64,000 nucleotides of DNA. Origin: a virus. This document shows positions 3,930 through 60,245 of this stretch, piece by piece (positions within the stretch are counted from its first letter, which is position 1; each line of letters begins with the position of its first letter). The notes under the pieces are model-generated. The model saw only the letters and a program-made list of their open reading frames with translations. It was not told the DNA's origin and searched no databases. The position numbers and the translations under genes were made by a program. Location of the stretch: positions 46,364 through 110,363 of IMG/VR virus record IMGVR_UViG_3300033064_001806, one strand, 5' to 3'.

Positions 3930-4799
3930 ATGAAAAAAACACAGACTAAAAAAGTACGTATTATTAAAGAAGATGTTTCTTCTGCAAATATAAGCCCCAT
4001 AAGTTACATGGTGTTTATAGATATTTCTAGTTATCTATCCAAAGGTCGTGGTTTATTAAATTCTATGTTTTCAAGTAAAGCAACTGAATCTATTACAAAA
4101 TGGTTTGGTAGAGTAAAAGAAGACGAAACTTATAAGGAAAATGAAGAGGCATTCAAAGCCATTTCTTCAAGATTTATGGGCAATCCTATTTTGAAAAAAC
4201 TTTATAGTTCAATAGACAAACTTAAAACCATTTCAACTGGCGAAACAGATCAAAGTGAAAGAGATAAAGATATTGAAAACTTATTGGGTAAAATAAGTTT
4301 ATTTATTAAAAATAGACTTACAAAAAAAGACAGGGAACTTATTGGTAAAATTTCAACTGTAGTTAATTCGATTGGTAATAATATTTCTTCTACCATAAAA
4401 TCAGACTTAGAAGTAATGACAAAAGCAGAAGCACCTGCACCAATCCAGTCAAAATCTAATGAAGAAAAACCAAAAGTAGAAGGAAAAGTAAATGAAAGAC
4501 TAAAAAATAAGTTGCGTAAGAAAATCAAAGAAATAATTAGAACTCAGATGCTAACCCCAAAATTAACTAAAGAAACTCCATTGTATGACATTGCAGCCCT
4601 TATTAGGAAAGATTGGAAGAATGTTTATCTCGGTGCTAAACCTTATCTTGATGCAATGAGTAAGCTCACTAATATATCAGATAGACATGGTGCAGATGAT
4701 GCTAAAACTATTGTTCTTTATTTTCTTTCTAATGCTTCTGCATGGAGAGGAGATACAGCAAAGGCAGTAAAGGCTCATCTTAAATCATTAGTCAAGTAA
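3930..4799 (+). CDS. hypothetical multi-domain protein
   Basis: 289 aa; distinct C-terminal domain 'PLYDIAALIRKDW...PYLDAM...YFLSNASAWRG' after a basic helix 'LKNKLRKKIKEIIR'. Confidence 0.6.
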   Translation: MKKTQTKKVRIIKEDVSSANISPISYMVFIDISSYLSKGRGLLNSMFSSKATESITKWFGRVKEDETYKENEEAFKAISSRFMGNPILKKLYSSIDKLKTISTGETDQSERDKDIENLLGKISLFIKNRLTKKDRELIGKISTVVNSIGNNISSTIKSDLEVMTKAEAPAPIQSKSNEEKPKVEGKVNERLKNKLRKKIKEIIRTQMLTPKLTKETPLYDIAALIRKDWKNVYLGAKPYLDAMSKLTNISDRHGADDAKTIVLYFLSNASAWRGDTAKAVKAHLKSLVK

Positions 4800-17313: not shown

Positions 17314-17321
17314 TATATTTG
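17314..17321 (+). promoter_or_regulatory. Bacteroidota-type -7 promoter element TATATTTG for the thioredoxin/modification operon
   Basis: Intergenic CGTATATTTGTA, followed by the palindrome at 17343-17361. Confidence 0.6.
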
Positions 17322-17662: not shown

Positions 17663-18361
17663 ATGACAGTTATAGAAGCGGTTTCTCCCGGTGACGCTTG
17701 GGTAAAAGTTTCTAAGCATTTGTTAGAAAAAGGGGAAAAAGTCGGTGAATTAATTGAAGAATTAAATGTAATGATGGAAATTACTCAATTTGAAAGTGAT
17801 GATTGGTTTGATTCACACTTCAGAGAAATAATGGGTGATGATAGAATTGATTTTGCTTCTTCGGTTACTTTCGTAGAACCTAAACATAAAAAACCAATTA
17901 ACGATTTCTTTCAAGTAGAAGAAGGATTAGAATATCAGTTCATTAAAGACCATTGGCATCAGTCCTATTGGGGAAGAATGATTAGTTGGCAAGGTACGTT
18001 TAATCAAGTTGAAAACGTTATTAAGATTTTGAAACAAGGTAAAGCAGTTAAACGTTGTGAGTTAATTATATTTGACCCATCACGTGATTCACGCAATCCG
18101 TATTCTCAACCTTGTATGTTAATGATTGACTTGAAGCCACGGAATGGTAAGTTGTATTTAACTTCTGTTTTACGTTCCAATAGAGTTTCTAAAAGTGGTT
18201 ACGCTGATTATTCTGCTTTAGTTAGTATGGGTAAGTTTTTAGCAAAAGAAAGTGATTTGGAATTAGGAAAGGTTAGTGTATTAGCATGTTCCTGCCACAT
18301 CGGTAAGATGAACAATGAACTTAAAAAAACAAAAGAATTATTAAACATACTCAATAAATAA
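17663..18361 (+). CDS. atypical thymidylate synthase / dCMP hydroxymethylase-family protein
   Basis: 'SYWGRM', 'NQVENVI', catalytic 'QPC', 'LRSNRVSKSGYAD' (Asp at the E. coli Asn177 position), 'SCHI'. Confidence 0.75.
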   Translation: MTVIEAVSPGDAWVKVSKHLLEKGEKVGELIEELNVMMEITQFESDDWFDSHFREIMGDDRIDFASSVTFVEPKHKKPINDFFQVEEGLEYQFIKDHWHQSYWGRMISWQGTFNQVENVIKILKQGKAVKRCELIIFDPSRDSRNPYSQPCMLMIDLKPRNGKLYLTSVLRSNRVSKSGYADYSALVSMGKFLAKESDLELGKVSVLACSCHIGKMNNELKKTKELLNILNK

Positions 18362-18362
18362 T

Positions 18363-19868
18363 ATGTGCGGTATAATAGCAACCGTCGGTTATACTAAAAC
18401 TGACGTTGATAATATGTTGGAAACCATCGCTCACCGTGGTAAAGATAACCGTGGTATAAAAGAATTTTCTTGGGGCGATAGAAAAGTTATACTTGGACAT
18501 AATCGTCTTGCCATTAACGATACTTCTGCCGCAGGCAATCAACCGATGGAATGGGAAGGTATTCACTTAGTAGTTAATGGCGAAATATGGAATTATCCTG
18601 AACTAAGAAAAGAATACGAAGAAAGGGGATATAAGTTTAAATCAAATTCAGATTCAGAACTTATACTGTTTGTGTACAAAGAACAAGAATTGAAAAGACT
18701 TAACGGTATGTTTTCTTTTGTTATTTGGGATAACGGAAAGCTAATTCTTTCACGTGATTGGGTTGGTAAGTTACCACTCTATATTTTTAACAATAACACT
18801 TACATTATTGCAAGTGAAATAAAATCTATTGTTAAACAATTACCGAACGCTGACATTAAGTTTGTACCGAAAAATTCTTTGATTGAAATTGATCTGAGTA
18901 CCGATAAAATAATAGTTCATAAAGATTACTATTTTAACTTTTCAAACGAAACAACTTCACCCGAAACACATGAAGAATGCAGTACAACAACGTACAATCT
19001 ACTGGAGAACGCGGTAAGTAAAAGATTGTTATCTGATGTACCTATTGCAACTTCGTTGTCTGGTGGGATTGATTCCGCTGTTATAACGTATTTGTTATCT
19101 ACTAAAATACCAAACTTAAAAGCCTATACAATTGCTTTTGATGAAGATTCACCTGACTTGAAATATGCAAGAATAGTTGCAAAACATTTAGGTGTTCAAT
19201 TGGTTGAAGTTTTAGTTCCAAGAAACGTGGAACTCTTGAAGCAAAGATTTTTAGAATCAATACGAGTTATTGAATATCCATCTACAGTTCAAATGCAAGT
19301 TGGTATTCTACAATCGTTTATAGCAGAACAAATGGCAAAGGATGGAATAAAAGTTGCGTTTAGTGGTGAAGGTTCTGATGAAGCGTATGGTTCTTATGGA
19401 ATGATACGGATGTTTAGTAAGAAGCCAGACTGGTCGGATATTAGAAAGAAATTATTTGAAAAGCAATACTATGGTAATTTATTACGCGGTAATACTGTTT
19501 TCATGTATTACGGAACAATAGAATTACGTTGCCCGTTTTTCGATATTGATTTTTTAGATTACACTACTAACTTAACGAACGAATTTTTATCTGATAAATC
19601 TCAATGGAAACTTCCACTCGCAGATGCATTTAGACCGTACTTGCCTAAAGAAGTTATTGAACAAGAGAAACGTGCTTTTCAAAAAGGTACAAACTTCAAA
19701 GGATATATTGAAGATATAATTCTAAATGATAAAGAAATAAACTTTCGTAATAGAAAAAAGATGCTTCATGTAATTGGTGATAACTTTGAAAAGATTCATG
19801 GATTTTCACATAAGAAAATGAAGGGCGAACTTATTGGTAATAATAGTGGAATATTCAAATGGATTTAA
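18363..19868 (+). CDS. asparagine synthase-like glutamine amidotransferase (Ntn + PP-loop)
   Basis: N-terminal 'MCGI', 'HRGKD', 'HNRLAI', 'NGEIWN', 'SLSGGIDS', 'SGEGSDE'. Confidence 0.9.
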   Translation: MCGIIATVGYTKTDVDNMLETIAHRGKDNRGIKEFSWGDRKVILGHNRLAINDTSAAGNQPMEWEGIHLVVNGEIWNYPELRKEYEERGYKFKSNSDSELILFVYKEQELKRLNGMFSFVIWDNGKLILSRDWVGKLPLYIFNNNTYIIASEIKSIVKQLPNADIKFVPKNSLIEIDLSTDKIIVHKDYYFNFSNETTSPETHEECSTTTYNLLENAVSKRLLSDVPIATSLSGGIDSAVITYLLSTKIPNLKAYTIAFDEDSPDLKYARIVAKHLGVQLVEVLVPRNVELLKQRFLESIRVIEYPSTVQMQVGILQSFIAEQMAKDGIKVAFSGEGSDEAYGSYGMIRMFSKKPDWSDIRKKLFEKQYYGNLLRGNTVFMYYGTIELRCPFFDIDFLDYTTNLTNEFLSDKSQWKLPLADAFRPYLPKEVIEQEKRAFQKGTNFKGYIEDIILNDKEINFRNRKKMLHVIGDNFEKIHGFSHKKMKGELIGNNSGIFKWI

Positions 19869-20698
19869 TACAAACACCGATTGAGGAATACGAACTCAAA
19901 GGAAAGAAAGTTTGGGTTAAACGTGATGATTTAATAGGTGATGGGATAAATTATCCAAGGTGGGCAAAGATAGAAGGAATTAAACAAATTCTAAGAAGCC
20001 CTGCTGTTGATAAAAACAAACCATTAACTCACCTTTCAGTATACGGTAGTTGGACAGGCTGGGTTTTATCTAAACTTTGTAAAGAAGAAGGTATAGAATT
20101 TATTTCTTCTTATCCAGATACAAAGAAATTCCCACCGAGTTTAATTGAAAGAGTAATGGCAAATGGTGGAAAATTAAATCCACTTAAACCAAACATAATG
20201 GCAATACTAAACAATCGTGTAAAGAAACAGGCAATAGAAAACGGGTGGCAAATGTTACCATATGCGTTCAATCATCCAATGTACATTGCACACATGGGTA
20301 GTAGAATGAAAGAAGTATTGGCGGATAATGATTTTGACCACTTGGTTGTTTCAATGGGAAGTGGTGTAACGTGTTCTGGACTTATAAATTCATTCTTACA
20401 TTATACAGATTGGCGAGATGTTGTTAGTAACAGAAGGCAAGTTCATGGTATTACAATGTCATCGATAAAATCAACAAGAAAAATATTAGAACAAAATGGA
20501 GCAGGTGGTAATAATAATATTCACATTTATAAATCACCATTTGCTTTTGACGATATGATGTTGGATTATTCAGTACCGTTTGATTGTAATGAGTTTTGGG
20601 ATAAAAAAATGTGGTTCTGGTTAGAAGAAAACATTGGGAAATTAGACGGAAAAGTATTATTTTGGAATATTGGCGGTTCATATTTACAATCGATTTAA
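19859..20698 (+). CDS. PLP-dependent fold-type II enzyme (ACC deaminase / D-cysteine desulfhydrase-like)
   Basis: 'TPIE...VWVKRDDL...AK', phosphate loop 'SMGSGVT', C-terminal 'VLFWNIGG'. Confidence 0.75.
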   Translation: MDLIQTPIEEYELKGKKVWVKRDDLIGDGINYPRWAKIEGIKQILRSPAVDKNKPLTHLSVYGSWTGWVLSKLCKEEGIEFISSYPDTKKFPPSLIERVMANGGKLNPLKPNIMAILNNRVKKQAIENGWQMLPYAFNHPMYIAHMGSRMKEVLADNDFDHLVVSMGSGVTCSGLINSFLHYTDWRDVVSNRRQVHGITMSSIKSTRKILEQNGAGGNNNIHIYKSPFAFDDMMLDYSVPFDCNEFWDKKMWFWLEENIGKLDGKVLFWNIGGSYLQSI

Positions 20699-21227: not shown

Positions 21228-21274
21228 ATTATATATTTATAGTAAACAAATTCGTTTACTCATAGAGAAGCATT

Positions 21275-21904
21275 ATGTCAAAACTAAGTAACATATTAAA
21301 AGAAAGTGGTTTATCGAGATTGGTTTACCACATGGAAATGCACGATTGCGGTACAATTACAGCCTTCCGCTCTAAAGAAGGGTGTGGTTTACCTGAAGAT
21401 TTACCGTATGCTCTACAAGATAACAAAAAAAGAAATGCACAATTAAAAGCAAAACTTGAAATGATGGGGTATGGAACAACAGCAGTTAAAGGTGCTTACA
21501 TTGAAAACTACGGAACACCTGAAGCAATTGAAGTACGTGAAGATGTTTTCTTTGTTGTGGATTTACAAGATAAAGGAAAACTTGAAGCAGATTTAAGAAG
21601 ATTGGGTGAAGAGTATATGCAAGATTCTATTTTGCTTATACCAAGGGGCGGTGATGGTTCTATTCTAATCGGTACAAACCAGTGTTCAGATTATCCAGGA
21701 TATGGAAGAACAATGCAATTCAATGATAGACAAATGGGCAAAGGTGGGCAATTCATGACAAAAGTAAAAGGCAGACCTTTTATATTTGAATCTGACTTGC
21801 TTGAACAAATTGGAAACCATAACTATTATAGTGTTGCAAACAACATGGGTAAGTGGGCAATGAAAACTATTGCAAATAAAAATTGGAAAGATATACAAAT
21901 TTAA
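21275..21904 (+). CDS. putative SAM lyase (T3 SAMase-like) with N-terminal leader
   Basis: Ordered motifs 'ITAFRS', 'NKKR', 'GAYIE', 'VRED', 'YMQDSIL' match T3 SAMase 'VSAFRS', 'NMSR', 'GCYRE', 'TEEK', 'WEQDCVL' as I recall them; leader MSKLSNILKE; ATATTTATA at 21233. Confidence 0.7.
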   Translation: MSKLSNILKESGLSRLVYHMEMHDCGTITAFRSKEGCGLPEDLPYALQDNKKRNAQLKAKLEMMGYGTTAVKGAYIENYGTPEAIEVREDVFFVVDLQDKGKLEADLRRLGEEYMQDSILLIPRGGDGSILIGTNQCSDYPGYGRTMQFNDRQMGKGGQFMTKVKGRPFIFESDLLEQIGNHNYYSVANNMGKWAMKTIANKNWKDIQI

Positions 21905-21926
21905 TTTTAATATTAAAGGTATTACT

Positions 21927-22211
21927 ATGAGTCGTTCATATAGAAAAACTTCCATAATTGGAAATGCTGGTTCTTCTGAAAAAATGGATAAAATTATAGC
22001 ACATCGTAAGAGTAGAAAACATATTAAAGACCATATTACAGCAACACATTGTAATTTAGAATTGTTAGAAGAAATAATGATGCCAAAAGACGATTATTTT
22101 TCTAATCCTTGGAATTCATCGAAAGATGGAAAAACTTATTGGGATATAACTGAAAATGAAAATGATGAAGATTGGCTAAAAAAATTAAAGAAAAAAATCA
22201 TGAGGAAGTAA
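21927..22211 (+). CDS. small basic hypothetical protein
   Basis: MSRSYRKT...'KDGKTYW'. Confidence 0.6.
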   Translation: MSRSYRKTSIIGNAGSSEKMDKIIAHRKSRKHIKDHITATHCNLELLEEIMMPKDDYFSNPWNSSKDGKTYWDITENENDEDWLKKLKKKIMRK

Positions 22212-22216
22212 TTGTT

Positions 22217-22516
22217 ATGGAAGTTTTATTAGTAGAACCGAAAACAAATAAGTTTACTGCTTATTTGTATGATGGTACAACCGCAGCAGCAAATGAAGCA
22301 TGCTTAAAGTGGCCATGTGTTATGACTGCAAGTAACAGTTATAAAGATAAATGGGTTTTGAAGTTTGAAGCATCGAGGGAAGAGTGCTTACCTGGTCAAT
22401 ATATTGTTAACGAAAGTAGAGGGTATTCCATTTATTCACAAAAGCAATTCTTAGAAAAGTACGAAGTGGTTTACGATAACCGAAATAAAATTGGTAACTT
22501 TTTAGCAGAAGATTAA
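22217..22516 (+). CDS. hypothetical protein (PGDYG/SH3-like)
   Basis: 'CLPGQYIV...YSIYSQKQFLEKYE'. Confidence 0.5.
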   Translation: MEVLLVEPKTNKFTAYLYDGTTAAANEACLKWPCVMTASNSYKDKWVLKFEASREECLPGQYIVNESRGYSIYSQKQFLEKYEVVYDNRNKIGNFLAED

Positions 22517-22528
22517 TATAGGAATGTT

Positions 22529-22630
22529 ATGTATTTAGATTACTTTGACAAGTTCAAAGGAATGAGTCCTTACCTTGCGATTGATAAAGCAAAATTTGCA
22601 GAACCAATGTGGATATTCAAAAAGGCATAA
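22529..22630 (+). pseudogene. 33-codon ORF, probable internally deleted methyltransferase remnant
   Basis: MYLDYFDKFKGMSPYLAIDKAKFAEPMWIFKKA; the C-end EPMWIFKK resembles the EPIFIFRKP / EPAFIFIKP ends of the two MTases. Confidence 0.45.
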
Positions 22631-25147
22631 ATGTATCAAAATATATTTGTTAAAACAAATACAAAAGAAGCATGGGTATGGGATGATGCTAAAGGACTTT
22701 TGTATTTTAACTATACTCCATATGCCTACCGTAGAGATTCAAACGGTAAGTTTGTTTCATTGTATGGCGATAAATTATCTAAGATAACTCAATTCACAAA
22801 GAATGATCCAGACTTATTTGAATCTGATGTTGCTGAAACTACGCGCATTCTTGTTGATATGTACCATGAATCCGATATTCCATCGAAAGGAATTGTTACA
22901 ATGACATTCGATATTGAGGTTGAAATGATTACAGGTACACCAGATGCAACTGAGGGTAACAATGAAATAACTTCTATAGCTTACCATGATTCAGCAACTA
23001 ACCATTACACTATGTTAGTGTTGGATAAACAGAAGCGATTGAAAAATAGAACTACGGATAATAAAACAATAGTTTCTTGTCCAGATGAAAAAACACTTCT
23101 ACTTAAATTCTTAGCAGGAATAGAAGAAATTCAACCGCACATTATGACTGGTTGGAATTGTGATGCATTCGATATTCCATATTTGCATAACAGAATAAAG
23201 AGAGTTCTTGGTAAGAAGCAAGCACATCGTATGTCACCTATAAATGAAATGTATTTTTCGCCTTATAGAAATCGATGGAGCATTGCTGGTATTTCTGTGT
23301 TGGATTACATGACTGTTTATAAAAAGTTCTCTTATAAAGAACTACCATCGTATGCACTTAATGCGGTTTGTATGACTGAGTTAGGACGTGGTAAGGTTGA
23401 GTATGAAGGTAACTTAGATGATTTGATGGAAAACGATATTGAAACTTTTATAGAATATAATATAACTGACGTTGAACTTGTTCTTGAATTAGACAAGAAG
23501 TTGCAGTATATAGACTTAGTGCGTGGTATTTGTCACGTTGGTCATGTTCCATACGAGGATTTTGTTTACTCTTCAAAGTATCTTGAGGGTGCTTTGTTAT
23601 CGTACCTTAAAAATGTTGGAAGTGTTGTAGCACCGAATAAGCCAGCTGATAGACAAGAGAAGATGGCAGAGTTACGAGAGAGTGGTCAACAAGGTTTTAT
23701 TGGTGCTTTTGTTAAAGACCCAATTCCCGGCCGCTACGAATGGATGTATGACTTGGATTTAACTTCTCTGTATCCATCCATTATTATGACTTTGAATATT
23801 TCTCCAGAAACAAAGATTGCTAAAATCGATAACTGGTCTGCTGAAGATTTTATTCGTGGTAACATTGAAGAATATTCCGTTGCTGGTGAAATGGTTTCAA
23901 AAGAAAAGTTAAAAGCGTTTTTGGATAAATACAAATATACCGTTGCTTCCAATGGGGTGATGTATAGTTCCGATAAGGTTGGATTGATTCCTGCAATTCT
24001 AAGTGATTGGTTTGACAAGCGGGTTCAGTATAAAGATGAAATGAAAAAATGGGGTAAAGAAGGTGATACAGCGAAGTATGAATTCTATAAGAAAAGACAA
24101 CTTGTTCAAAAGATTCTACTCAACTCACTCTATGGTGTGCTTGGTTTGCCTGCATTTCGCTTCTATGATATTGATAATGCGGAAGCAGTTACACTTTCTG
24201 GTCAGACTGTAATTAAGAAAACAGAAGCAGCGATTAACATGAAATATAACAAAGAACTGATAACAGATAATATTGATTACGTACAATATGTTGATACCGA
24301 TTCTGTCTTTGTTTCTTGTTTACCGTTGGTAAAGAATAGATTTCCTGATATTGATACTAACGATATTGAGTTGATGACTCCAAAGATTTATGAGATTGCA
24401 ACCGAAGTTCAAGATTATGTAAATGAGTTCTACAATATATTTGCAAAGAAAGTATTCAACACGGATAAACATCGCTTAGAAATTAAACAAGAGATGATTG
24501 GACGTACAGGTTTCTGGCAAAAGAAAAAGCGATATGCATTATGGATTATTTCTGACAACGGTGTTCCGATGGACAAGTTGGAAGTTAAGGGATTGGATAT
24601 TGTTCGCTCTTCATTTCCAAAATCATTTCAGAAGTTTATGAAGGCGGTACTAATTGATATTCTGAAAGGTAGAGATAAAGTAGAATTAGATGAAGATATT
24701 ATAAAATTCAAACGAGATTTAGGTACAGTTCTGTATGGTGAGTTGGCAAAGAACTCTTCTATAAAAGATATTAAGAAATATCAAGAACGTTTAACAGTTG
24801 ATGTTTTGGGTAAGTTTGGAAAAGGAACGCCTGCTCATATTAAAGCAGCGATGAATTATAATAACCTATTAAAGTTATTTAATTGTCCACCGAAGTTTCC
24901 AGCAATTAAAAACGGTGATAAAGTTAAGTGGGTATATTTAAAAAATAACTCATACGGTTTAGAACTATTAGCATTCAGAGGAGATTCAGATCCAGTAGAA
25001 ATTATAGAATTTATTAAAAATTACTTTGATGCAAACGAATTATTTGTATCGGAGTTGGATGGTAAACTAAGAGGTTTCTATGAATCAATGAAGTGGGAGT
25101 TCCCAACGGAAAGTAAAAAGGTTGCACAAAAGTTTTTTACTTTCTAA
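22631..25147 (+). CDS. family B DNA polymerase (gp43-like)
   Basis: Exo 'FDIE', 'GWN...FDIPY', 'YNITD'; pol 'DLTSLYPS', 'KILLNSLYG', 'YVDTDS', 'KKRY'. Confidence 0.97.
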   Translation: MYQNIFVKTNTKEAWVWDDAKGLLYFNYTPYAYRRDSNGKFVSLYGDKLSKITQFTKNDPDLFESDVAETTRILVDMYHESDIPSKGIVTMTFDIEVEMITGTPDATEGNNEITSIAYHDSATNHYTMLVLDKQKRLKNRTTDNKTIVSCPDEKTLLLKFLAGIEEIQPHIMTGWNCDAFDIPYLHNRIKRVLGKKQAHRMSPINEMYFSPYRNRWSIAGISVLDYMTVYKKFSYKELPSYALNAVCMTELGRGKVEYEGNLDDLMENDIETFIEYNITDVELVLELDKKLQYIDLVRGICHVGHVPYEDFVYSSKYLEGALLSYLKNVGSVVAPNKPADRQEKMAELRESGQQGFIGAFVKDPIPGRYEWMYDLDLTSLYPSIIMTLNISPETKIAKIDNWSAEDFIRGNIEEYSVAGEMVSKEKLKAFLDKYKYTVASNGVMYSSDKVGLIPAILSDWFDKRVQYKDEMKKWGKEGDTAKYEFYKKRQLVQKILLNSLYGVLGLPAFRFYDIDNAEAVTLSGQTVIKKTEAAINMKYNKELITDNIDYVQYVDTDSVFVSCLPLVKNRFPDIDTNDIELMTPKIYEIATEVQDYVNEFYNIFAKKVFNTDKHRLEIKQEMIGRTGFWQKKKRYALWIISDNGVPMDKLEVKGLDIVRSSFPKSFQKFMKAVLIDILKGRDKVELDEDIIKFKRDLGTVLYGELAKNSSIKDIKKYQERLTVDVLGKFGKGTPAHIKAAMNYNNLLKLFNCPPKFPAIKNGDKVKWVYLKNNSYGLELLAFRGDSDPVEIIEFIKNYFDANELFVSELDGKLRGFYESMKWEFPTESKKVAQKFFTF

Positions 25148-25156
25148 ATAATTCAG

Positions 25157-25164
25157 TATATTTG
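25157..25164 (+). promoter_or_regulatory. -7 promoter element TATATTTG
   Basis: Intergenic, upstream of the clamp gene. Confidence 0.55.
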
Positions 25165-25195
25165 TGGAAATTATTATTATAAAAGGATTCGTGTT

Positions 25196-25915
25196 ATGGA
25201 AAAATCAAAGTTATTAAACTTCATTAGTAAATATCACTTGGGTAAATTAGTTCAATCTGTTGCTTGGAATGCAAACGGTGGATTAGCAACTCGTTTTATT
25301 TCTGATGACAAATGCGTAGTAGGAGAAGTTAAGTTAAAAAGTTTCAGCGGTCAAGTAGCAAAGTTTGGTGTGTATGATACAAACTTACTTACAAGTCTTC
25401 TTGGTGTTCTTGGTAACACTATTGAATTTAAAATCAATGGTGCAGACGATAAAGCATTCGCTTTAACATTAAGTGATAAATCCACAACTGTTAATTATAT
25501 GTTAGCTGATTTGGCAGTTATTCCACCGGCACCGGAGTTGAAAGAACTTCCACCATTTGAATTAGAAATGTCAATTACAAAAGATTTTATTGATAAATTT
25601 ATCAAAGCTAAATCTGCTTTATCTGATATTGAGAAGTTTACTATTCTTAAAAACGGTAAGACTAATAAATGGCAAATTGTAATTGGTTATGCTAACATAA
25701 ACTCCAATAGAATTTCAATTGATATTGATTGTATTTGTGAACAAGATTTTGAACCAATTTCTTTTTCAGCAAAGTATTTCAAAGAAATTCTATCAGCAAA
25801 TAAAGATTTGAACGGTGGTTCAATGAAAGTTTCCTCACAAGGTTTAGCAAAAGTTGAATTTGATATTGACGATTTTGAATCAAGATATTTCTTAGTAAAA
25901 TTGGAAAACAATTAA
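25196..25915 (+). CDS. sliding clamp (gp45-like)
   Basis: 239 aa between PolB and clamp loader; 'FGVYD..LL..L', 'VSSQGLAKVEF...YFLV'. Confidence 0.75.
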   Translation: MEKSKLLNFISKYHLGKLVQSVAWNANGGLATRFISDDKCVVGEVKLKSFSGQVAKFGVYDTNLLTSLLGVLGNTIEFKINGADDKAFALTLSDKSTTVNYMLADLAVIPPAPELKELPPFELEMSITKDFIDKFIKAKSALSDIEKFTILKNGKTNKWQIVIGYANINSNRISIDIDCICEQDFEPISFSAKYFKEILSANKDLNGGSMKVSSQGLAKVEFDIDDFESRYFLVKLENN

Positions 25916-27549
25916 TGAAAAAGTATTTCTATGAAAAAAGTGATATTCTGTCCTGGCCATCAAACATAACGTATGGTGAACTGGTTACATTTGACGATAA
26001 CAGGTTTTATGAATGGGCAGAAGATTTACGAATGAGGATTCTAACTGATTGGGATAACAATGGGAAACCGCCAGTCGTTGGTAGAACTGAGGAAGAGATT
26101 AATCAATCATTCTCGAAACTCCGTCAGTTCAACGCTTCATCTATTTTTCATAGTGTGGAAGACGGCAATGACTCTGATATGATTGGAGTCATTGCTAATT
26201 TCACAAAAATTGGTTCTGCTGCAAATCAATTCTTTCCAACAATGCTAAAAACTAAAATTGCATCTGGCATGGGAAGTGATTCTGGTAAATCGATTTACGA
26301 TTATTTTACAGACTCTATGAAAGAAACATTTCATCATATTATGAAGAGAAGTGTTTACAACGATTCTATGTATTTGTACAGTAAGTCTTTATCTTCAAAT
26401 CAAGTAAAGAATCCTTACTTCAAAGAAGGTGAAACTCTTCGTGATTTCTTCATGGCGTATAAAAATGGTGATGGAAGATTCGATGGACAAGGTGTTCGTA
26501 TTTCTAAAATATCATGCACTCTACAAACTCAAAGTAAAAAATACAAAAAGTATTTAACTATAAAGGTAGATGAGATTAGACAGTTCTTAGCGGAAGGTTT
26601 GATTGATGACTTCATGTTATTTACTTTGGGTAGTCCAGCGGATTTAACTGATACATTTAATATACAAAAAGAAGGTTCGGAACCGAGGGCAAATGTTTAT
26701 ATTGTTCGTGTTTACGAAAAGAATATAAAACTATTTCCAAGTGCAATACAAGTATTTCGTATGTCATTTTGTCAACCGGCTGTAAACTTTCCACCTATGA
26801 CCGCAAAGTTTATTTATGAACACTTTACAAAACATATACCTGCAAGTGAAACAGTAACGGTATATGATCCAAGTTCTGGTTGGGGTGGAAGGATACTCGG
26901 TGCTATGTCTGTTGGCCGCCCAATGCATTATGTTGGAACAGACCCAAATACAGATAACTTTATTGATGAATTAGGAATAAGTCGTTATGAATACCTTGCA
27001 GACTTTTTTCTAAAATCAATAGGCGAGCGAGGCACAAATATATCTTCAAACTTCTTTGTTACAAATGAAAATCATACATACGAACTTTTTCAAGATGGTT
27101 CAGAAACAATTCAATTCAATCCTAAATTTCAAAAGTATAAAGGTAAGTTAGATTTTGTTTTTACTTCACCACCATACTTTAATAGAGAAATGTATTCCGA
27201 TGATGCAACTCAATCGTATAAAGCACATAGTGAGTATGCGGATTGGCGTGATAACTTTTTACGCCCAACATTAGAAACTGCGGTTGCTTATTTGAAATCA
27301 GACCGTTACCTTTGTTGGAATATAGCTGATATTAGAATTTCAACTAACAAAATAGTTCACCTTGAAAAAGATTCAATTGATATATTAGAATCATTGGGAA
27401 TGGAGTATGTAGGTAAATTTGGAATGGCAATGGGTAGAATGATTGGTAACTCTGACCAAGAAAAATTGGCTGAAAGAACTTCTAATAAAGTTTTTCATAA
27501 AGGTCAATGGTGGAAACAAGAACCTATTTTTATTTTCCGGAAACCATAA
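25915..27549 (+). CDS. amino-group (N4-C/N6-A) DNA methyltransferase
   Basis: 'AVNFPP..AK', motif I 'YDPSSGWGGR', 'GTDPN', motif IV 'FTSPPYF'. Confidence 0.8.
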   Translation: MKKYFYEKSDILSWPSNITYGELVTFDDNRFYEWAEDLRMRILTDWDNNGKPPVVGRTEEEINQSFSKLRQFNASSIFHSVEDGNDSDMIGVIANFTKIGSAANQFFPTMLKTKIASGMGSDSGKSIYDYFTDSMKETFHHIMKRSVYNDSMYLYSKSLSSNQVKNPYFKEGETLRDFFMAYKNGDGRFDGQGVRISKISCTLQTQSKKYKKYLTIKVDEIRQFLAEGLIDDFMLFTLGSPADLTDTFNIQKEGSEPRANVYIVRVYEKNIKLFPSAIQVFRMSFCQPAVNFPPMTAKFIYEHFTKHIPASETVTVYDPSSGWGGRILGAMSVGRPMHYVGTDPNTDNFIDELGISRYEYLADFFLKSIGERGTNISSNFFVTNENHTYELFQDGSETIQFNPKFQKYKGKLDFVFTSPPYFNREMYSDDATQSYKAHSEYADWRDNFLRPTLETAVAYLKSDRYLCWNIADIRISTNKIVHLEKDSIDILESLGMEYVGKFGMAMGRMIGNSDQEKLAERTSNKVFHKGQWWKQEPIFIFRKP

Positions 27550-27552
27550 TAT

Positions 27553-28632
27553 ATGAGACCTAACGGCGATAGTTTAAGTAAATTTTTTGATGTTGATCAG
27601 CTAGAAGTTCGTTTGTGGAAAGAAACAGGTGAATACTTTGCAGGTAAGAGAGAATTGGATGATACAATAGATTGTATCTTTCAGTATTACCGCAAACATG
27701 GTTATCCGTATATGAAAATCACCGAACAAGAAAAACATGAACACATGAGAAAACTTCAACAATTTAATTATGATTCTATTTTCAAAGACGGTGATATAAT
27801 TCAAACTATGAACGGACTTCGTTTGGCATGGTCTTACTTTCCACATGGAATGGAAATCAAGTGTGGTAATTCTAAAATGTCTCCTATGGATAATTTTTTA
27901 AATGACCAAACATTCAAAATGACTATTCGTAAATGTTTGAAGTGGTTGTGGAAACATTTGGGTGGTTCTTTTCAAGAGAATCGTCTTCGTCAATCACTTA
28001 AAATATATTCCGGTGTTCAAGGTGTTTCTAATTTCAGACCAACTGCTGCAGGTGCTATTTATAAAAGATTTGGTGGTGATGGTGTGATGTGGGATATGTC
28101 TTGTGGTTGGGGTGGTAGATTAGTCGGTGCACTTGCTTCACCGTATATCAAAACTTATATCGGAACAGAACCATCTACCAAAACATTTGAAGGTCTATGT
28201 AAACTTCGTGATGACTTTGCGTATCTTGGGAAAGATATTCAATTGAATATGATGGGTTCAGAAGATTATCTACCAGAAAAAGAAAGTTTAGATTTATGTT
28301 TCACTTCACCTCCGTATTTTGATACAGAAAAGTATGCAGATGAAGAAACTCAATCGTATAATAAGTTTTCAACTCGTGATACTTGGGGTTCTGGTTTCTT
28401 ACAAGAAACATTTAAGAATTGTTTTCATGGATTAAAACCGCATGGTTATATGTTGATAAACATTTCAAATACACCAAAGTATAAAGACTTGGAAGAAATG
28501 ACAATTCATTATGCAAAAGAAGTGGGTTTCATATATGAAGGTAAAATTAATCTAATTCTATCATCAGTTATGGGTGCTGGGTATAAAAGAGAACCTGCAT
28601 TTATTTTTATAAAACCCTTGGCAGTCTCATAA
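27553..28632 (+). CDS. amino-group (N4-C/N6-A) DNA methyltransferase
   Basis: 'SNFRPT', 'WDMSCGWGGR', 'GTEP', 'FTSPPYF'. Confidence 0.82.
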   Translation: MRPNGDSLSKFFDVDQLEVRLWKETGEYFAGKRELDDTIDCIFQYYRKHGYPYMKITEQEKHEHMRKLQQFNYDSIFKDGDIIQTMNGLRLAWSYFPHGMEIKCGNSKMSPMDNFLNDQTFKMTIRKCLKWLWKHLGGSFQENRLRQSLKIYSGVQGVSNFRPTAAGAIYKRFGGDGVMWDMSCGWGGRLVGALASPYIKTYIGTEPSTKTFEGLCKLRDDFAYLGKDIQLNMMGSEDYLPEKESLDLCFTSPPYFDTEKYADEETQSYNKFSTRDTWGSGFLQETFKNCFHGLKPHGYMLINISNTPKYKDLEEMTIHYAKEVGFIYEGKINLILSSVMGAGYKREPAFIFIKPLAVS

Positions 28633-28640
28633 AAAATTTG

Positions 28641-28648
28641 TATATTTG
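28641..28648 (+). promoter_or_regulatory. -7 promoter element TATATTTG
   Basis: Intergenic, upstream of clamp loader. Confidence 0.55.
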
Positions 28649-28677
28649 TACTATAATATAAATCACAAGGTTATAAT

Positions 28678-29622
28678 ATGTTTAATGCAACTCACACAAT
28701 TTGGAACGAAAAGTATCGTCCACAGACACTTGACACGTATGTAGGTAACGAAACTATCAAGACAACATTTAAACAATACATAGAAAACAATGATGTACCT
28801 CACTTATTGTTGTATGGCGATGCTGGTAGTGGTAAAACAACACTCGCTAAGATTGTTGCGAACTCTATCGCAAAAGATAATTATATTTACATTAATGCGT
28901 CAGACGAAAACTCCGTAGATACTGTTCGTGATAAAATCAAACAGTTTGCTTCTTCAATTGGATTTGGTGGATTGAAATTGATTATACTTGATGAAAGTGA
29001 TTATCTTACACCCAGTGCTCAAGCAGCACTTCGTAATGTAATTGAAACATTCAGTAAAACTACTCGTTTCATTTTAACGTGTAACTATGTTGAAAAGATT
29101 ATTGACCCGATTCAATCTCGTTGTCAAATCTTTAACATAGTACCACCATCAAAGAAAGAAGTTGCACAACACATCGTAAGCATTTTGGAGAGCGAGAAAG
29201 TTACATACAACAAAGAACACCTTGTTAGTATTATCAATTCAAACTATCCTGATATTCGTAGAGTTATTAATACAACTCAACGATGCGTAATCGATGGTAA
29301 ACTGAAATTAGATGAATCAACATTAGTGGAAACTAATTACTTTTCAACTATTGTTGATTTACTGAAATCAAATAAAAACAAAAAAGAGAAGTTTGAAGGT
29401 ATTCGTCAGATACTTGCAGATAATCATGCGAGAGATTTTAATCAACTGTTTCGTTATCTCTATGATAATGTAGATAGTTACGCAAGCGGTTTTGTATCAA
29501 CTATTATTTTAATCATCGCAGAAACACAATATAAAGATAGTTTTGTGGTTGACCACGAAATAAATGCAATGGCAATGTTTATTCAAATTATTATGGAAAT
29601 TGAACAAAGGAGGAAAGGATGA
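28678..29622 (+). CDS. clamp loader AAA+ subunit (gp44 / RFC-small-like)
   Basis: 'WNEKYRP', 'GDAGSGKT', 'NASD', 'LDESD', 'SRC'. Confidence 0.93.
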   Translation: MFNATHTIWNEKYRPQTLDTYVGNETIKTTFKQYIENNDVPHLLLYGDAGSGKTTLAKIVANSIAKDNYIYINASDENSVDTVRDKIKQFASSIGFGGLKLIILDESDYLTPSAQAALRNVIETFSKTTRFILTCNYVEKIIDPIQSRCQIFNIVPPSKKEVAQHIVSILESEKVTYNKEHLVSIINSNYPDIRRVINTTQRCVIDGKLKLDESTLVETNYFSTIVDLLKSNKNKKEKFEGIRQILADNHARDFNQLFRYLYDNVDSYASGFVSTIILIIAETQYKDSFVVDHEINAMAMFIQIIMEIEQRRKG

Positions 29623-29888
29623 GTGTATTTGATATTAATGGAGGTGGGCAACCACCAGGGCAAGAACAACAAAGAATTAATGTTGACTTAAATCAAGCAA
29701 GTGATATTGTTTGTTCTAATTGTGGCGGGAAGTTTTTTCATGCAGTAACATTCTTTAAGAAGATTTCTGCATTACTTTCACCAACTGGACAAGAAGGAAT
29801 TATTCCAATTCCAACATATGCTTGTCTTGAGTGTGGAAATATTAATGAAGAATTTTTACCATCAAAAAGACAACAACTAAACGATTAA
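29619..29888 (+). CDS. zinc-ribbon hypothetical protein
   Basis: CSNC...CLECG. Confidence 0.65.
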   Translation: MSVFDINGGGQPPGQEQQRINVDLNQASDIVCSNCGGKFFHAVTFFKKISALLSPTGQEGIIPIPTYACLECGNINEEFLPSKRQQLND

Positions 29889-29901
29889 TAGGATTTCAAT
29901 A

Positions 29902-30357
29902 ATGTCTGCTAAGAATATATTCGACCATTTAAAAGGTGTTACACTTCGTAAGACAAAGTGGGAAGACTTATCTGAAGAAGATAAGAAGAGTTGGAGTAAT
30001 TATATGATTTCACGTTTCTTCTCTATGGAGCCGGAACTTGTGGAAGTTATAAATGAATTTCAAAAATACTCGAACGGAATATTATCATCAGAAGATTATT
30101 ATAAACTATTATCGGATACTCTACCAAAGCATTCGTTCTTTCTAAAATATGTTAAAGCTAAGAATAGAGTTAACATAGAACCAGAAATGATTACTTTATT
30201 TTGTAACCATTTTCAACTTGGAAAGAGCGAAGTGTTTGAGTATATTCGTTTTCTGAAAACTACTAATCCAACTGAACTTACTACTATACTAAAGAAGTAC
30301 GGTACTAAAGAAGACGCAATAAAAGATTTTGAAAAGAAATTGAAGACTATAAAATGA
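29902..30357 (+). CDS. clamp loader small subunit (gp62-like)
   Basis: 'NYMISRFFS', 'LPK..FFLKYVK'; located near the AAA+ subunit. Confidence 0.65.
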   Translation: MSAKNIFDHLKGVTLRKTKWEDLSEEDKKSWSNYMISRFFSMEPELVEVINEFQKYSNGILSSEDYYKLLSDTLPKHSFFLKYVKAKNRVNIEPEMITLFCNHFQLGKSEVFEYIRFLKTTNPTELTTILKKYGTKEDAIKDFEKKLKTIK

Positions 30358-30737
30358 GGAATAAAATGTCAATTAAAGAAATAGACTTAGGTAGAAAACA
30401 AAATAGTGTTGTTTCTGAAATGGAAGAAAAGTTTCCTACTATGACTAAAGAATTTAAACGTATTCAACAAGAACAGTACGAACTATTCTGTGCAAAACAA
30501 AAAAACTATGGTCCAGATAATATATCAATGGGTACAACATTAGAAAGAGAGGAAGACAGAAAACTTTCTTTACAAGGTTTATTCTTTCGTATTAACGATA
30601 AAATAAACAGATACAAACAAATGATTATGTTTGGTTCACAAGATGCAGTTGGTGAATCCTTATATGACACATTCAAAGATATTTCTGTTTATGGAATTAT
30701 CGCACAACTTGTTCAATCTGGTAAATGGGGGAAATAA
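30354..30737 (+). CDS. nucleotide modification associated domain protein (DUF1599/Nmad1-like, MazG-like fold)
   Basis: 'KQKNYG', 'RINDKINR', 'ESLYDTFKDISVYGII'. Confidence 0.7.
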   Translation: MRNKMSIKEIDLGRKQNSVVSEMEEKFPTMTKEFKRIQQEQYELFCAKQKNYGPDNISMGTTLEREEDRKLSLQGLFFRINDKINRYKQMIMFGSQDAVGESLYDTFKDISVYGIIAQLVQSGKWGK

Positions 30738-31894
30738 TGAGTACATATATATGGACTTCGGAATATGTAAGTGAAGGTCATCCTGATAAAATAGCTGACC
30801 AAATTTCAGATGCAATTCTTGATTGGTATTTACAAAGAGATCCAGACGCAAAGGTTGCGTGTGAGGTTATGGTAAAGGATAGTGATGTTTATGTTTCTGG
30901 TGAAATAAAATCAACGGTTGATAAAGATAAAAGAACTTTAGAATTATCACTAACTAGATTAATTAAAGGACTTATAAAAGACATTGGCTATACAATAGAA
31001 GAATCACCATTCTTCAATTCAGAGTATTGCCGTATTCACTTTAATATATCAACTCAATCATCAGAGATTAATCAAGCGGTTGATAAAGGTGATGTTGTTA
31101 CAGCAGGAGACCAAGGTATTATGTTTGGTTACGCTACTCGTGAAACTCCAACATATATGCCGATAGCAATTTACTTGGCTAAAAAACTAATTGACGTTGC
31201 AACAGATATTAGAAAAAAAGGTAGTAAATTAGGTCATGTACAGAAACTTCGTCCCGATATGAAGAGTCAAGTGTCTGTTACGTATAAAGATAATAAAGCA
31301 GTAGGTATTCATTCTGTTGTATTTTCAACTTGTCATTCTGAAATGATTTCACTTGAACAACTTAGAAAGTATTTCCATTCTGATATTTTACCAACGGTAT
31401 TAGAAAGTATTCCAGAAGAACTTGCGGAACTATTTACAGATAAAACTGTTTACCATATAAATCCAGCAGGTGAATGGAATGTTGGTGGTCCAGTTTCTGA
31501 TTGTGGATTAACAGGTAGAAAGATTGTAGTTGATCAATACGGTGCTGATTGTGAAATTGGCGGTGGCGCTTTCTCTGGCAAAGACCCAAGTAAAGTTGAT
31601 AGAAGTGCAGCGTATATGGCTCGTCATATCGCTATAACAACACTTCATGAAAATGAAGAAGCAAATAAAATTAAAGTTCAATTGGCATATGCAATCGGTG
31701 AAGAGTTTCCTGTTTCATATCGTATATTTGATCCAACAACTTGCAAAGAATATGGACTTGGTAAATTTACTCACGCTGATTTAACTCCAAGTAGAATCAT
31801 TGAAAGATTAAAATTAAAAACTCCTATTTATTTACAAACTGCCAAGTATGGTCATTTTGGAAATAAAGATTTAGAATGGGAGAAAATTGGATGA
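30737..31894 (+). CDS. metK: S-adenosylmethionine synthetase
   Basis: 'SEYVSEGHPDKIADQISDAILD', 'AGDQGIMFG', 'GLTGRK', 'GGGAFSGKDPSKVDRS', 'YGHFG'. Confidence 0.96.
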   Translation: MSTYIWTSEYVSEGHPDKIADQISDAILDWYLQRDPDAKVACEVMVKDSDVYVSGEIKSTVDKDKRTLELSLTRLIKGLIKDIGYTIEESPFFNSEYCRIHFNISTQSSEINQAVDKGDVVTAGDQGIMFGYATRETPTYMPIAIYLAKKLIDVATDIRKKGSKLGHVQKLRPDMKSQVSVTYKDNKAVGIHSVVFSTCHSEMISLEQLRKYFHSDILPTVLESIPEELAELFTDKTVYHINPAGEWNVGGPVSDCGLTGRKIVVDQYGADCEIGGGAFSGKDPSKVDRSAAYMARHIAITTLHENEEANKIKVQLAYAIGEEFPVSYRIFDPTTCKEYGLGKFTHADLTPSRIIERLKLKTPIYLQTAKYGHFGNKDLEWEKIG

Positions 31895-32382
31895 AACTAA
31901 AAGACTTGATAATGGAAGCATTTACTCTTAGTGGTAGAGTTATGTTATATCACTTTTCAAAAGAAGATTTAGGAAATGTAGCAGTTCTCGATCCGGCATT
32001 ATCAAGTCAACGTCCATCTTCTTGGTCACGTAACGATTATAAATTATCGAAAGTACCAAGAGTATTTTACTATACAGACTTAACAAAAGTTGAGCATATG
32101 GTTAAAACTAATAATTTATATGCAGCAGAATATGATGGTACTAAAATACTAAACGTATCGCAGGTATTGAAGGAGTATCAAACAAATCCAGATTCACTTG
32201 CTATCAAAAATCCAAACGCTTTCAAAATAATGCAATCGTCCGTAAACCAATATGGTGTATTAGATTACGATGCTATGTTAAGAACAGCCGGCCAATTCTT
32301 TAGTGGTGTATTCTACGATACTGGTAACTTACCAATTGTCAATTTATTCGTACCATTAAGGGCAAAAAAACAAAATGTCTGA
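31891..32382 (+). CDS. leader-tagged protein, possible ADP-ribosyltransferase-like fold
   Basis: MKLKDLIME leader; 'LYHFS...LDP...RVFYY' strand pattern. Confidence 0.45.
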   Translation: MKLKDLIMEAFTLSGRVMLYHFSKEDLGNVAVLDPALSSQRPSSWSRNDYKLSKVPRVFYYTDLTKVEHMVKTNNLYAAEYDGTKILNVSQVLKEYQTNPDSLAIKNPNAFKIMQSSVNQYGVLDYDAMLRTAGQFFSGVFYDTGNLPIVNLFVPLRAKKQNV

Positions 32383-58598: not shown

Positions 58599-58616
58599 TT
58601 TTAGGAGATTATATAA

Positions 58617-60245
<1,629 letters not shown>

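Follow-up and report, generated by a model that had tools for sequence, protein, structure and literature searches.

A T3 SAMase-like lyase with a putative capsid-targeting leader, encoded near two methyltransferases and MetK in a T4-like phage

A SAM lyase family gene and its neighbours

The window analysed here, a stretch of 64,000 nucleotides from a viral record (IMGVR_UViG_3300033064_001806), carries on its plus strand a SAM lyase family gene, two methyltransferase genes and a gene for methionine adenosyltransferase (MetK). Judged by its gene content, the phage is T4-like: gp23, gp20 and a gp21-type Peptidase_S77 protease are all encoded, and profile searches returned these T4-type head genes with scores of 265 bits (Gp23), 249 bits (Portal_T4) and 103.8 bits (Peptidase_S77, PF03420). 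No gp55 homologue was found in the phage by sequence. The host is probably a member of Bacteroidota, because the phage has promoters of the TAnnTTTG type and Flavobacterium phages are among its nearest cultured relatives.

The lyase ORF (21275..21904) encodes 209 amino acid residues and matches the Pfam family S-AdoMet_lyase (PF23780) over residues 47-150 with 41.9 bits (E 1.2e-10, cut-off 28); T3 SAMase itself scores 143 bits on this model. The same family was present in all of the more than 498 homologues of the ORF. An initial sequence-only reading had recognized T3 SAMase-like motifs here, and their positions and order are borne out by the alignment: TAFRS (residues 29-33), N50..R53, GAYIE (73-77), RED (88-90) and QDSIL (116-120) correspond to SAFRS, N..R, GCYRE, EE and QDCVL in T3 SAMase. 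The AlphaFold2 (AF2) model (pLDDT 71) has a PII-type fold, and its top PDB match is T3 SAMase (7ock, entry 7ock_L; VIA Z 10.7, rmsd 3.5, 130 aligned residues), followed by Svi3-3 (6znb, Z 6.4) and generic PII/CutA matches (Z about 5). A direct hhalign comparison with T3 SAMase alone gave a probability of just 26%, and the lyase profile had no match among PDB sequences. In an alignment of 20 homologues, residues Y75, E77, E86, Q116, D117 and S118 are invariant and G73 is nearly so. E86 aligns with E68 of T3 SAMase, which is equivalent to E69 of Svi3-3, and the Y-to-E spacing equals the 11 residues between Y58 and E69 of Svi3-3, for which the roles of ligand residues have been described (PMC7877911). 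Because PF23780 scores above its cut-off, the model matches T3 SAMase with a Z of 10.7 and the G-x-Y, E and QDS residues are conserved, we conclude from sequence and model that the ORF encodes a genuine SAM lyase family protein with intact active-site residues, as the sequence-only reading had proposed; its likeness to T3 SAMase and Svi3-3 holds at both profile and structure levels. Catalysis is predicted: the enzyme would convert SAM to methylthioadenosine and homoserine lactone.

The likeness to T3 gp0.3 SAMase and Svi3-3 (PF23780, PII-like fold, G-x-Y, the glutamate and Q-D/E-S) leads us to expect that an anti-restriction and anti-BREX role via SAM removal would apply here too. There are also clear differences. 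T3 gp0.3 has 152 residues, whereas the longer lyase described here is extended by an N-terminal helix (SSLSR...H.HD) and by about 35 residues at its C-terminus. T3 gp0.3 belongs to T7-like podoviruses and is the first early gene, whereas the present lyase is found in T4-like myoviruses and lies behind a structural-class promoter motif. Finally, it differs from T3 SAMase in its propeptide-like leader ending in (L/I)xE and in being encoded together with SAM-dependent methyltransferases.

A different substrate has to be considered, since the SAM lyase family includes enzymes that cleave SAM-AMP but not SAM, and SAM-AMP signalling has been described in Bacteroides fragilis (PMC12255297), the host of this phage likewise being a likely member of Bacteroidota. 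An enzyme acting on SAM-AMP or another sulfonium compound would be an anti-type III CRISPR enzyme that does not conflict with MetK or the methyltransferases, and its presence next to them would no longer be paradoxical. SAM-AMP lyases (from C. botulinum, and the phage candidate AcrIIIB4) belong to the same superfamily, share the catalytic glutamate and the B-loop glutamine, and include a phage-encoded member with an added N-terminal region like that of the lyase studied here. Their hallmarks are an extended AMP pocket, the T-loop conformation, W64/F84 stacking and T110/Y122 phosphate contacts, and they do not cleave SAM; the present phage is not known to have any type III CRISPR setting. We nevertheless regard this substrate as unlikely: T3 SAMase is by a wide margin the best structural match of the model, the G-x-Y...E...QDS set corresponds to SAM-binding residues of Svi3-3 and T3 SAMase, and the SAM-AMP lyase entries 9GAD and 9GAB were not among the matches listed, although this last point is weak evidence.

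Methyltransferase 1 (MT1; 25915..27549, 544 residues) contains D.S.GWGGR followed by TSPPYF, with a PF01555-type catalytic region at residues 413-493. Methyltransferase 2 (MT2; 27553..28632, 359 residues) is its paralogue (31% identity) and has both D.S.GWGGR and TSPPYF. The PF01555 scores of the two proteins, 28.1 and 30.9 bits, are just above the cut-off of 26.7, and no PDB sequence relative was found for either. From their motifs we infer that both act on DNA and belong to the class that targets N6/N4 of the base. MT2 is missing from two nearly identical records (L007 and L013).

MetK (30725..31894) is full length, with PF00438, PF02772 and PF02773 all present and a score of 402.6 bits on the TIGR01034 equivalog model (cut-off 309.4). 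Its stop codon overlaps (ATGA) the start of a 163-residue ORF (31891..32382) with the leader MKLKDLIME and an ART-like (NAD-using toxin) fold. Host-type boxes of the sequence TATATTTG lie at 25157..25164, before the clamp, MT1 and MT2 genes, and at 28641..28648, before an operon that runs from the clamp loader to DUF1599 and MetK; in the form TATATTTG(T) these boxes precede 25196 and 28678. Both the methyltransferases and MetK would thus be early genes, transcribed with the replication genes from host-type promoters, a timing suggested by promoter type. The presence of two SPPY methyltransferases and a full MetK behind host-type promoters, as originally claimed, is upheld by PF01555, TIGR01034 and the TATATTTG boxes.

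Promoter motif and possible timing of lyase transcription

The lyase is preceded by a phage-specific promoter motif, ATATTTATA (21233..21241, plus strand, 42 nt before the ATG), which we place in the structural (late) gene class. Genome-wide, this motif has 16 copies on the plus strand and 3 on the minus strand. Twelve of the 16 plus-strand copies are intergenic, a category that makes up 5.8% of the genome (binomial P 2e-12), and each of these is followed by a start codon at a distance of 12-53 nt (25-53 nt in 11 cases). The same class of motif precedes the lyase and the genes for portal, sheath and tube, as well as some non-structural genes (13994, 57562). Among relatives, all 22 distinct regions upstream of the lyase keep the core ATATTTAT unchanged (background 0.015 per 80 nt), while their flanks vary. 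T4's TATAAATA occurs within 80 nt upstream of 7 of 36 distinct distant lyase homologues, where 0.25 would be expected. The putative late motif noticed earlier is therefore non-random and shared with structural operons. An inverted repeat (GTAAAC N6 GTTTAC plus flanks; 21236..21266, plus strand) overlaps the 3' end of the motif, with a folding energy of -7.8 kcal/mol (z -2.66). In the alignment, relatives have other palindromes at this position, and RNAalifold found no consensus structure for the region in relatives.

A second route of transcription may exist. The upstream operon, which encodes thioredoxin-like, TS-like and AsnB-like proteins, a PLP enzyme and a dUTPase, begins behind a host-type box, TATATTTG (17314..17321, plus strand; Bacteroidota-like TAnnTTTG). 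Between this promoter and polB (22631) we found neither a terminator-like site nor a host-type promoter; the next host-type box is that at 25157, and no terminator-like site precedes it. Because nothing of either kind separates 17314 from polB, the lyase may also be transcribed early by read-through. This arrangement, together with the presence of a leader-bearing ORF (31891) in an early operon, speaks for a cytoplasmic, unpackaged SAM lyase, expressed early (and perhaps later too) and working within the infected cell, as T3 gp0.3 does. The structural-class motif placed exactly upstream, its core preserved while the flanks vary, and the occurrence of T4's motif ahead of several distant homologues argue against such an enzyme. 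In the roughly 30 relatives lacking MetK, it would also collide with the two SAM-dependent methyltransferases encoded in the same genome.

The N-terminal leader and the proposed packaging of the lyase

The first ten codons of the lyase gene (21275..21304, plus strand) encode the leader MSKLSNILKE, which ends in L-x-E and is a predicted propeptide; the predicted mature protein would start at S11 (SGLSR...). The AF2 model gives residues 1-10 a pLDDT of 35, suggesting disorder, and its first helix begins at residue 12. The leader consensus, M-x-K-L-x-(D/N)-(I/L)-L-x-E, has at its end the (L/I)xE motif at which gp21 cleaves, and this motif is kept in virtually every lyase homologue. Position P3 is L, I or M in 111 of 115 distinct leaders; the glutamate at P1 was imposed by the search anchor and is also invariant in a separate alignment (A1). 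Within the first 22 residues, the tag was found in 9 of 127 phage proteins against about 0.44 expected from the internal frequency of the pattern, which was defined post hoc, once the leaders were known. This roughly 20-fold N-terminal enrichment concerns unrelated families, and other ORFs in relatives bear the same tag. The capsid protein has LIKE, LLE and IDE in its N-terminal region, ahead of the Gp23 domain. Given this enrichment and an encoded gp21-type protease, the leader noted in the sequence-only reading is real and non-random.

A known parallel is found in the T4 internal proteins IPI, IPII and IPIII and in Alt, capsid-targeted cargo processed by gp21, in which a leader of about ten residues ending in (L/I)xE is likewise common to unrelated proteins; a Peptidase_S77 prohead protease, gp23, gp20 and a late-class promoter are also shared. 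In IPIII, residues 1-10 are enough for packaging (PMC9026906). The T4 leader, MKTYQEFIAE in IPII and IPIII, differs from the consensus given above, and packaging and cleavage in the present phage are predictions from sequence. The leader of a Paraglaciecola phage homologue of the lyase, MKTFSEFLGE, has 6 of 10 positions in common with the T4 leader. The delivery of an anti-defence function at DNA entry would follow the same logic as T4 IPI* acting against GmrSD.

In 13 of 15 fused forms that were inspected, the motif also persists at internal junctions and between tandem copies. For example, the lyase of Mel-JY01 is fused, through a junction reading '..IINE' and then S, to a homologue of the window ORF 3930-4799, which lies in a virion-gene region. 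The strong conservation of (L/I)xE-SSLSR, even internally, could mean that it caps the domain structurally and is not a cleavage site. Retention in fusion proteins, as would be expected of a structural element, fits the cytoplasmic enzyme considered above, for which (L/I)xE-SSLSR would be an N-terminal cap and the shared leader would stem from an AT-rich 5' coding bias or a preference in translation initiation. The occurrence of the tag on unrelated families and the predicted disorder of residues 1-10 point the other way.

The only virion proteome we found for a phage with a lyase homologue is that of Campylobacter phage IBB_35, in which 38 proteins were identified, including the products of the neighbouring genes 5-10, 5-12 and 5-13 (PMC3322345, Table S2). 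The lyase homologue, gene 5-9, is not in this list, which favours the cytoplasmic enzyme; the survey relied on gels, was of low sensitivity and failed to list several structural proteins that are known, and the phage is a distant one. Among the other ten records with distant lyase homologues, Peptidase_S77 is present in seven: all five large ones (three of them complete) and two of the five small fragments.

Taken together, we consider a lyase that is made late, packed into the virion and injected to be the best single reading, with a probability of about one half, because an (L/I)xE leader tag, a structural-class promoter and a gp21-type protease come together; a purely cytoplasmic enzyme is an unlikely but serious competitor. 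The earlier proposal of late synthesis, packaging and injection is thus upheld in part: leader, motif and protease tie the gene to the virion module, whereas the IBB_35 list and possible early read-through weigh against it. As we envisage it, the precursor would be made late and brought into the prohead core by its leader (about ten residues, common to at least eight unrelated phage proteins), in a role comparable to the capsid targeting sequence of T4 internal proteins. The gp21-type protease would then cut the precursor to leave S11 as the N-terminus, and the mature lyase would enter the next cell along with the ejected DNA. By cleaving SAM in that cell, the enzyme would disarm defences that need SAM (type I/III restriction, BREX) ahead of any phage gene expression. 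Sequestration in the prohead would spare the phage's own SAM-dependent methyltransferases from SAM starvation. To our knowledge, within the literature that could be searched, a SAM lyase as capsid-targeted cargo has not been reported.

MetK and the wider lyase family

The original proposal coupled the lyase to MetK in a switch that destroys and then rebuilds SAM. In its full form, an injected lyase would deplete SAM and block host MetK, and a co-adapted, putatively lyase-resistant phage MetK would restore SAM for methylation of progeny DNA. Such a switch has a partial precedent in T3 SAMase, an inhibitor of host MetK as well as a SAM-cleaving enzyme (PMC8406200; bioRxiv 10.1101/2023.02.27.530186). 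It is also consistent with early MetK and a late-class lyase promoter, and with the co-occurrence of lyase and MetK in this phage and in Mel-JY01, whose MetK orthologue has the same position. The phyletic distribution of MetK is at odds with it. MetK and the following ORF were co-inserted as a two-gene insertion that, outside the nearest clade, occurs only in Mel-JY01. About 30 syntenic relatives, L090 and L091 among them, have the lyase and both MT1 and MT2 but no MetK at the corresponding position, and most relatives with a lyase lack MetK. Three complete genomes whose lyase homologues are distant do not have it either, and it occurs in many phages that have no lyase, such as Streptococcus phages. 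The 'rebuild' half is therefore optional and the coupled switch does not stand as claimed; we rate its full, co-adapted form as doubtful. Judged by this distribution, MetK is a lineage-specific add-on, loosely linked to the lyase and not its obligatory partner. It probably raises the SAM supply for the methyltransferases and would offset the injected lyase. Full-length MetK beside DNA methyltransferases in Streptococcus phages and Faecalibacterium phage FP_Brigit is the same enzyme, presumably sustaining methylation; here, unlike in those phages, it coexists with a SAM lyase and was co-inserted with the leader-tagged ART-like ORF, a leader-bearing gene within a host-promoter operon.

The lyase subfamily of about 200 residues has hundreds of environmental members and is found in Campylobacter, Alishewanella and Paraglaciecola phages as well as in Lak megaphages. 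A bolder and decidedly less probable extension is that this subfamily in T4-like phages consists of capsid-targeted, protease-matured ejection proteins. If this is true, SAM depletion would be delivered as a pre-made enzyme along with the DNA. In the present phage, the lyase would then be one item of a leader-tagged effector library that also holds an ART-like protein and a hydrolase, and an early, lyase-tolerant MetK would restore SAM for progeny methylation.

The lyase and its genome setting

Sixty-four kilobases at the right end of a viral contig (110,363 bp) make up the window; every gene is on the + strand, and GC is ~32%. The left 46 kb hold a T4-type virion module comprising a large terminase, Portal_T4, a gp21-like prohead protease (Peptidase_S77) and a Gp23 major capsid protein. 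Judged by the capsid protein, the closest cultured relatives are "Microcystis" phage Mel-JY01 (70% identity) and Flavobacterium immuto phages (56%). No phage record matched the region by Megablast, and the genomic contexts of lyase relatives were taken from IMG/VR loci (L-numbers). A complete 177-kb IMG/VR record encodes a 100% identical lyase (tblastn). Upstream of the dUTPase gene, a TS-like gene, an Asn-synthase-like amidotransferase and a PLP fold-II enzyme (17663-20698) may constitute a base-modification operon; this trio is complete in the nearest clade, and relatives at 61-69% show only a weak PLP-enzyme match (21-24% identity).

The lyase ORF (21275-21904, +, 209 aa) matches the Pfam model S-AdoMet_lyase (PF23780) with 41.9 bits, above the cut-off of 28; T3 gp0.3 scores 143 bits on the same model. 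When a profile of 20 homologs was compared with T3 SAMase, 92 columns were aligned with an hhalign probability of just 26%, a single sequence being the target. This alignment confirmed the T3-like motifs in the order proposed by the sequence-only reading, pairing TAFRS with SAFRS, N..R with N..R, GAYIE with GCYRE, E86 with T3 E68, and QDSIL with QDCVL. Residues Y75, E77, E86, E89, Q116, D117 and S118 are invariant in the 20 homologs, and G73 is nearly so. Ligand binding in Svi3-3 involves the conserved residues G56, Y58, E69 and Q104, with E105 adjoining Q104, and the E68Q mutant of T3 SAMase loses complementation (PMC7877911). The 11-residue spacing from Y to E is the same in the lyase and in Svi3-3.

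The AlphaFold2 model of the lyase (pLDDT 71, pTM 0.74) has T3 SAMase and Svi3-3 as its best Foldseek matches; VIA Z scores are 10.7 to 7ock_L (rmsd 3.5, 130 residues), 6.4 to Svi3-3 and ~5 to generic PII/CutA folds. Neither protein was found when PDB sequences were searched by direct phmmer or with the family profile, so it is Pfam, hhalign and fold comparison that link the lyase to them; neither the lyase nor the methyltransferases of this genome have an NCBIfam model. Taken together, the Pfam score, motif alignment, conserved residues and fold matches make membership in the SAM lyase family well supported. Some members of the family cleave SAM-AMP and not SAM (PMC12255297); from the much closer likeness to T3 SAMase, we infer that the substrate is SAM.

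The lyase has matches in more than 498 protein clusters, about 200-215 aa long, and PF23780 is present in 120 of 120 among the matches listed, all of them unnamed. IMG/VR contains 188 lyase loci, and cultured carriers include Mel-JY01, Paraglaciecola GD virus 1, Alishewanella phages, Campylobacter CP220-type phages and Lak megaphages.

Promoter class and leader of the lyase gene

The putative late-class motif ATATTTATA occurs genome-wide in 16 copies on the + strand and 3 on the - strand. Twelve of the 16 are intergenic, in a genome with an intergenic share of 5.8% (P 2e-12), and lie 12-53 nt upstream of a start codon (11 of them at 25-53 nt). The genes behind them encode portal, sheath, tube and a 2545-aa virion protein, as well as the lyase, whose copy (21233-21241) is 42 nt upstream of its start codon; a few non-structural genes are also preceded by this class. 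All 22 distinct upstream regions from relatives with 61-95% identity have the core ATATTTAT unchanged amid variable flanks, and the canonical T4 late promoter TATAAATA lies within 80 nt upstream of 7 of 36 distinct distant homologs (expected 0.25). This combination of motif distribution, invariant core and T4-type promoters indicates, at the level of predicted promoters, that the lyase is tied to the structural-gene class in several lineages. T4 gp55 had no tblastn match in this genome or in the complete 177-kb relative, a result that is uninformative because late sigma factors diverge fast.

An inverted repeat (21236-21266, GTAAAC..GTTTAC) begins within the late-class motif; since no T-run follows, it is not an obvious terminator. 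At the same place, relatives (L008-L037) have TGTAAAA..TTTTACA or TGTATAT..ATATACA, so that the palindrome is kept and the sequence changed. RNAalifold found no consensus structure in the 60-nt upstream regions, each sequence having its own palindrome.

The host-type box TATATTTG(T) has ten intergenic copies with A/T-rich upstream context, and these fit the Bacteroidota -7 element as generally known, TAnnTTTG. Behind them are recombination, nucleotide-metabolism, clamp, clamp-loader and GroES/EL operons. Matches to TATATTTG within the lyase gene (21781) and within metK (31723) were rejected as internal promoters, both having neither the trailing T nor the A/T-rich upstream context of the intergenic copies. 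The phage-encoded GroES and GroEL genes (58305-60245) have a host-type TATATTTGT promoter upstream at 58272. Another TATATTTGT box at 35562, inside a glycosyltransferase gene (34994-36295), has the full extended context of the intergenic promoters and may be an internal promoter. Neither a terminator nor a host-type promoter was found over the stretch from the early promoter at 17314 to polB at 22631; early read-through across the lyase gene is therefore likely.

The ten-residue leader MSKLSNILKE is disordered in the model (pLDDT 35), with the first helix beginning at residue 12. Nine of 127 proteins have, within their first 22 residues, a leader pattern composed from this and similar N-termini, compared with 0.44 expected from 5 internal matches in 31,857 residues. 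The N-terminal half of the tag recurs on other ORFs of close relatives. In the 61-69% relatives (L010-L037), the tag is found within 10 kb of the lyase on a 291-aa ORF (MIKLKKLLTE...; MIKLKKLLTEGGN...), a 107-aa ORF (MKSLKLKSLLIKE...) and others. Around distant homologs (+/-10 kb), only 1 of 822 ORFs shares the last seven leader residues, too few to use. In all 115 distinct lyase leaders the residue before the predicted cut (P1) is E, which was imposed by the search anchor yet is invariant in the lyase alignment A1 too; P3 is L, I or M in 111, and leader length peaks at 10-15 residues.

Among the longer forms, 13 of 15 examined have at least one lyase domain behind another domain or as a tandem copy, and (L/I/V)xE|SSLSR directly precedes every lyase copy found with the anchor. 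The environmental proteins P0141, P0142, P0152 and P0088, for example, are tandem pairs or have an unrelated N-terminal domain, with (L/I)xE|SSLSR before each domain. Such internal copies suit both a cleavage site and the alternative, a motif that caps the lyase domain structurally. In Mel-JY01 (L005:13983-15269), the lyase occupies the first ~184 residues of a 428-aa ORF in the virion-gene region and is joined through '..KKIINE|S' to the homolog of window ORF 3930-4799, whose own N-terminus ends in '..RIIKE|D'; this fusion looks like a polyprotein of head cargo. ORF 3930-4799 itself (289 aa, no assigned function) lies in an operon behind a ATATTTATA copy at 3560.

The N-termini of T4 IPII and IPIII read MKTYQEFIAE|A, that of the Paraglaciecola lyase homolog MKTFSEFLGE|S, and the first ten residues of IPIII are enough for packaging (PMC9026906). 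In this phage's capsid protein, LIKE, LLE and IDE occur N-terminal to the Gp23 domain. Peptidase_S77 is encoded in 5 of 5 large records with distant lyase homologs (three of them complete) and in 2 of 5 small fragments. Given the leader statistics, junction motifs, likeness to T4 internal proteins and Peptidase_S77, the best reading of the leader is a putative capsid-targeting propeptide processed by a gp21-type protease.

Methyltransferases, MetK and the downstream ORF

The sequence-only reading placed a full MetK and two SPPY methyltransferases behind host-type promoters, and all are present: promoters at 25157 (clamp, MT1 at 25915-27549, MT2 at 27553-28632) and 28641 (the operon with MetK, 30725-31894). 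MetK is a full-length equivalog match. MT1 and MT2 are paralogs, each with a glycine-rich motif followed by TSPPYF and a PF01555 score just above the cut-off; no PDB sequence relatives of either were found. The order dUTPase, lyase, two small ORFs, PolB, clamp, MT1, MT2, clamp loader, DUF1599 is kept in ~30 IMG/VR contigs, which makes the pairing of a SAM lyase with SAM-dependent methyltransferases a conserved one. Two loci with a 100% identical lyase by tblastn (L007, L013) differ from the window over 22500-28650: ~1,060 extra bases separate small ORF 22217 from the clamp gene, MT2 is missing, and a weak MT2-like match (26% identity) precedes PolB. From these differences, the methyltransferase set seems to vary among near-identical strains.

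MetK is confined to the nearest clade and Mel-JY01, in the same position. It was not found in four syntenic records (in L090 and L091 a PD-(D/E)XK nuclease directly follows DUF1599) nor in three complete genomes with distant lyase homologs, and many phages with MetK have no lyase. Because it is absent from lyase-bearing relatives and present in lyase-free phages, MetK is best regarded as an optional addition that boosts SAM supply; a coupled destroy-then-rebuild switch, as proposed earlier, finds no support as a conserved system, MetK being missing from syntenic relatives that keep the lyase. T3 SAMase acts on host MetK (PMC8406200; bioRxiv 10.1101/2023.02.27.530186), and insensitivity to the lyase would thus be desirable for the phage enzyme.

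A 163-aa ORF (31891-32382) with leader MKLKDLIME overlaps the MetK stop codon (ATGA); the two genes arrived together. For the AF2 model of this ORF (pLDDT 86), the best matches are ART-fold proteins that use NAD (MbcT, AcrIF11, ParT, RES toxins), and an Atlas lead points to ART-PolyVal. It may be an Alt-like injected ADP-ribosyltransferase. A direct tie to SAM metabolism, considered since a homolog lies near the lyase in L053, was rejected in view of the ART-like fold.

Proposed packaging and injection of the lyase

For the Campylobacter phage IBB_35, a virion proteome of 38 proteins includes the products of genes 5-10, 5-12 and 5-13 and does not include their neighbor 5-9, the lyase homolog (630 bp, 24.19 kDa) (PMC3322345). 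This absence weighs only lightly, since the survey used gel bands, reached 2.5% coverage for the portal protein and left several known structural proteins undetected (PMC3322345). In the literature searched, no paper connects SAM lyase or SAMase with internal proteins or capsid targeting. The proposal that the lyase is made late, packaged and injected stands as a substantial, purely computational case built on promoter class, leader and protease; strictly late expression is tempered by the likely early read-through. Both kinds of component are already known, and the new element would be their combination, a SAM lyase as T4-type capsid-targeted cargo.

In T3-like podophages, SAM lyase is known as the gene that comes first among the early genes, and these phages can afford to make an anti-restriction enzyme while most of their genome is still outside the cell. 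DNA injection by T4-like phages is fast, so a pre-made, co-injected SAM lyase would, if true, be a different solution to the same problem. A metabolite-destroying enzyme would then be added to the few ejected proteins with an anti-defence role (IPI*, Alt, DarA/B). Packaging would also explain a SAM-destroying enzyme beside SAM-dependent methyltransferases in one genome, the two being separated in time and by sequestration in the prohead. The lyase family is large and annotated so far solely as "hypothetical protein". The shared leader would serve as a capsid-targeting tag that can be tested in T4-like phages of Bacteroidota, and with it their injected effectors could be listed.
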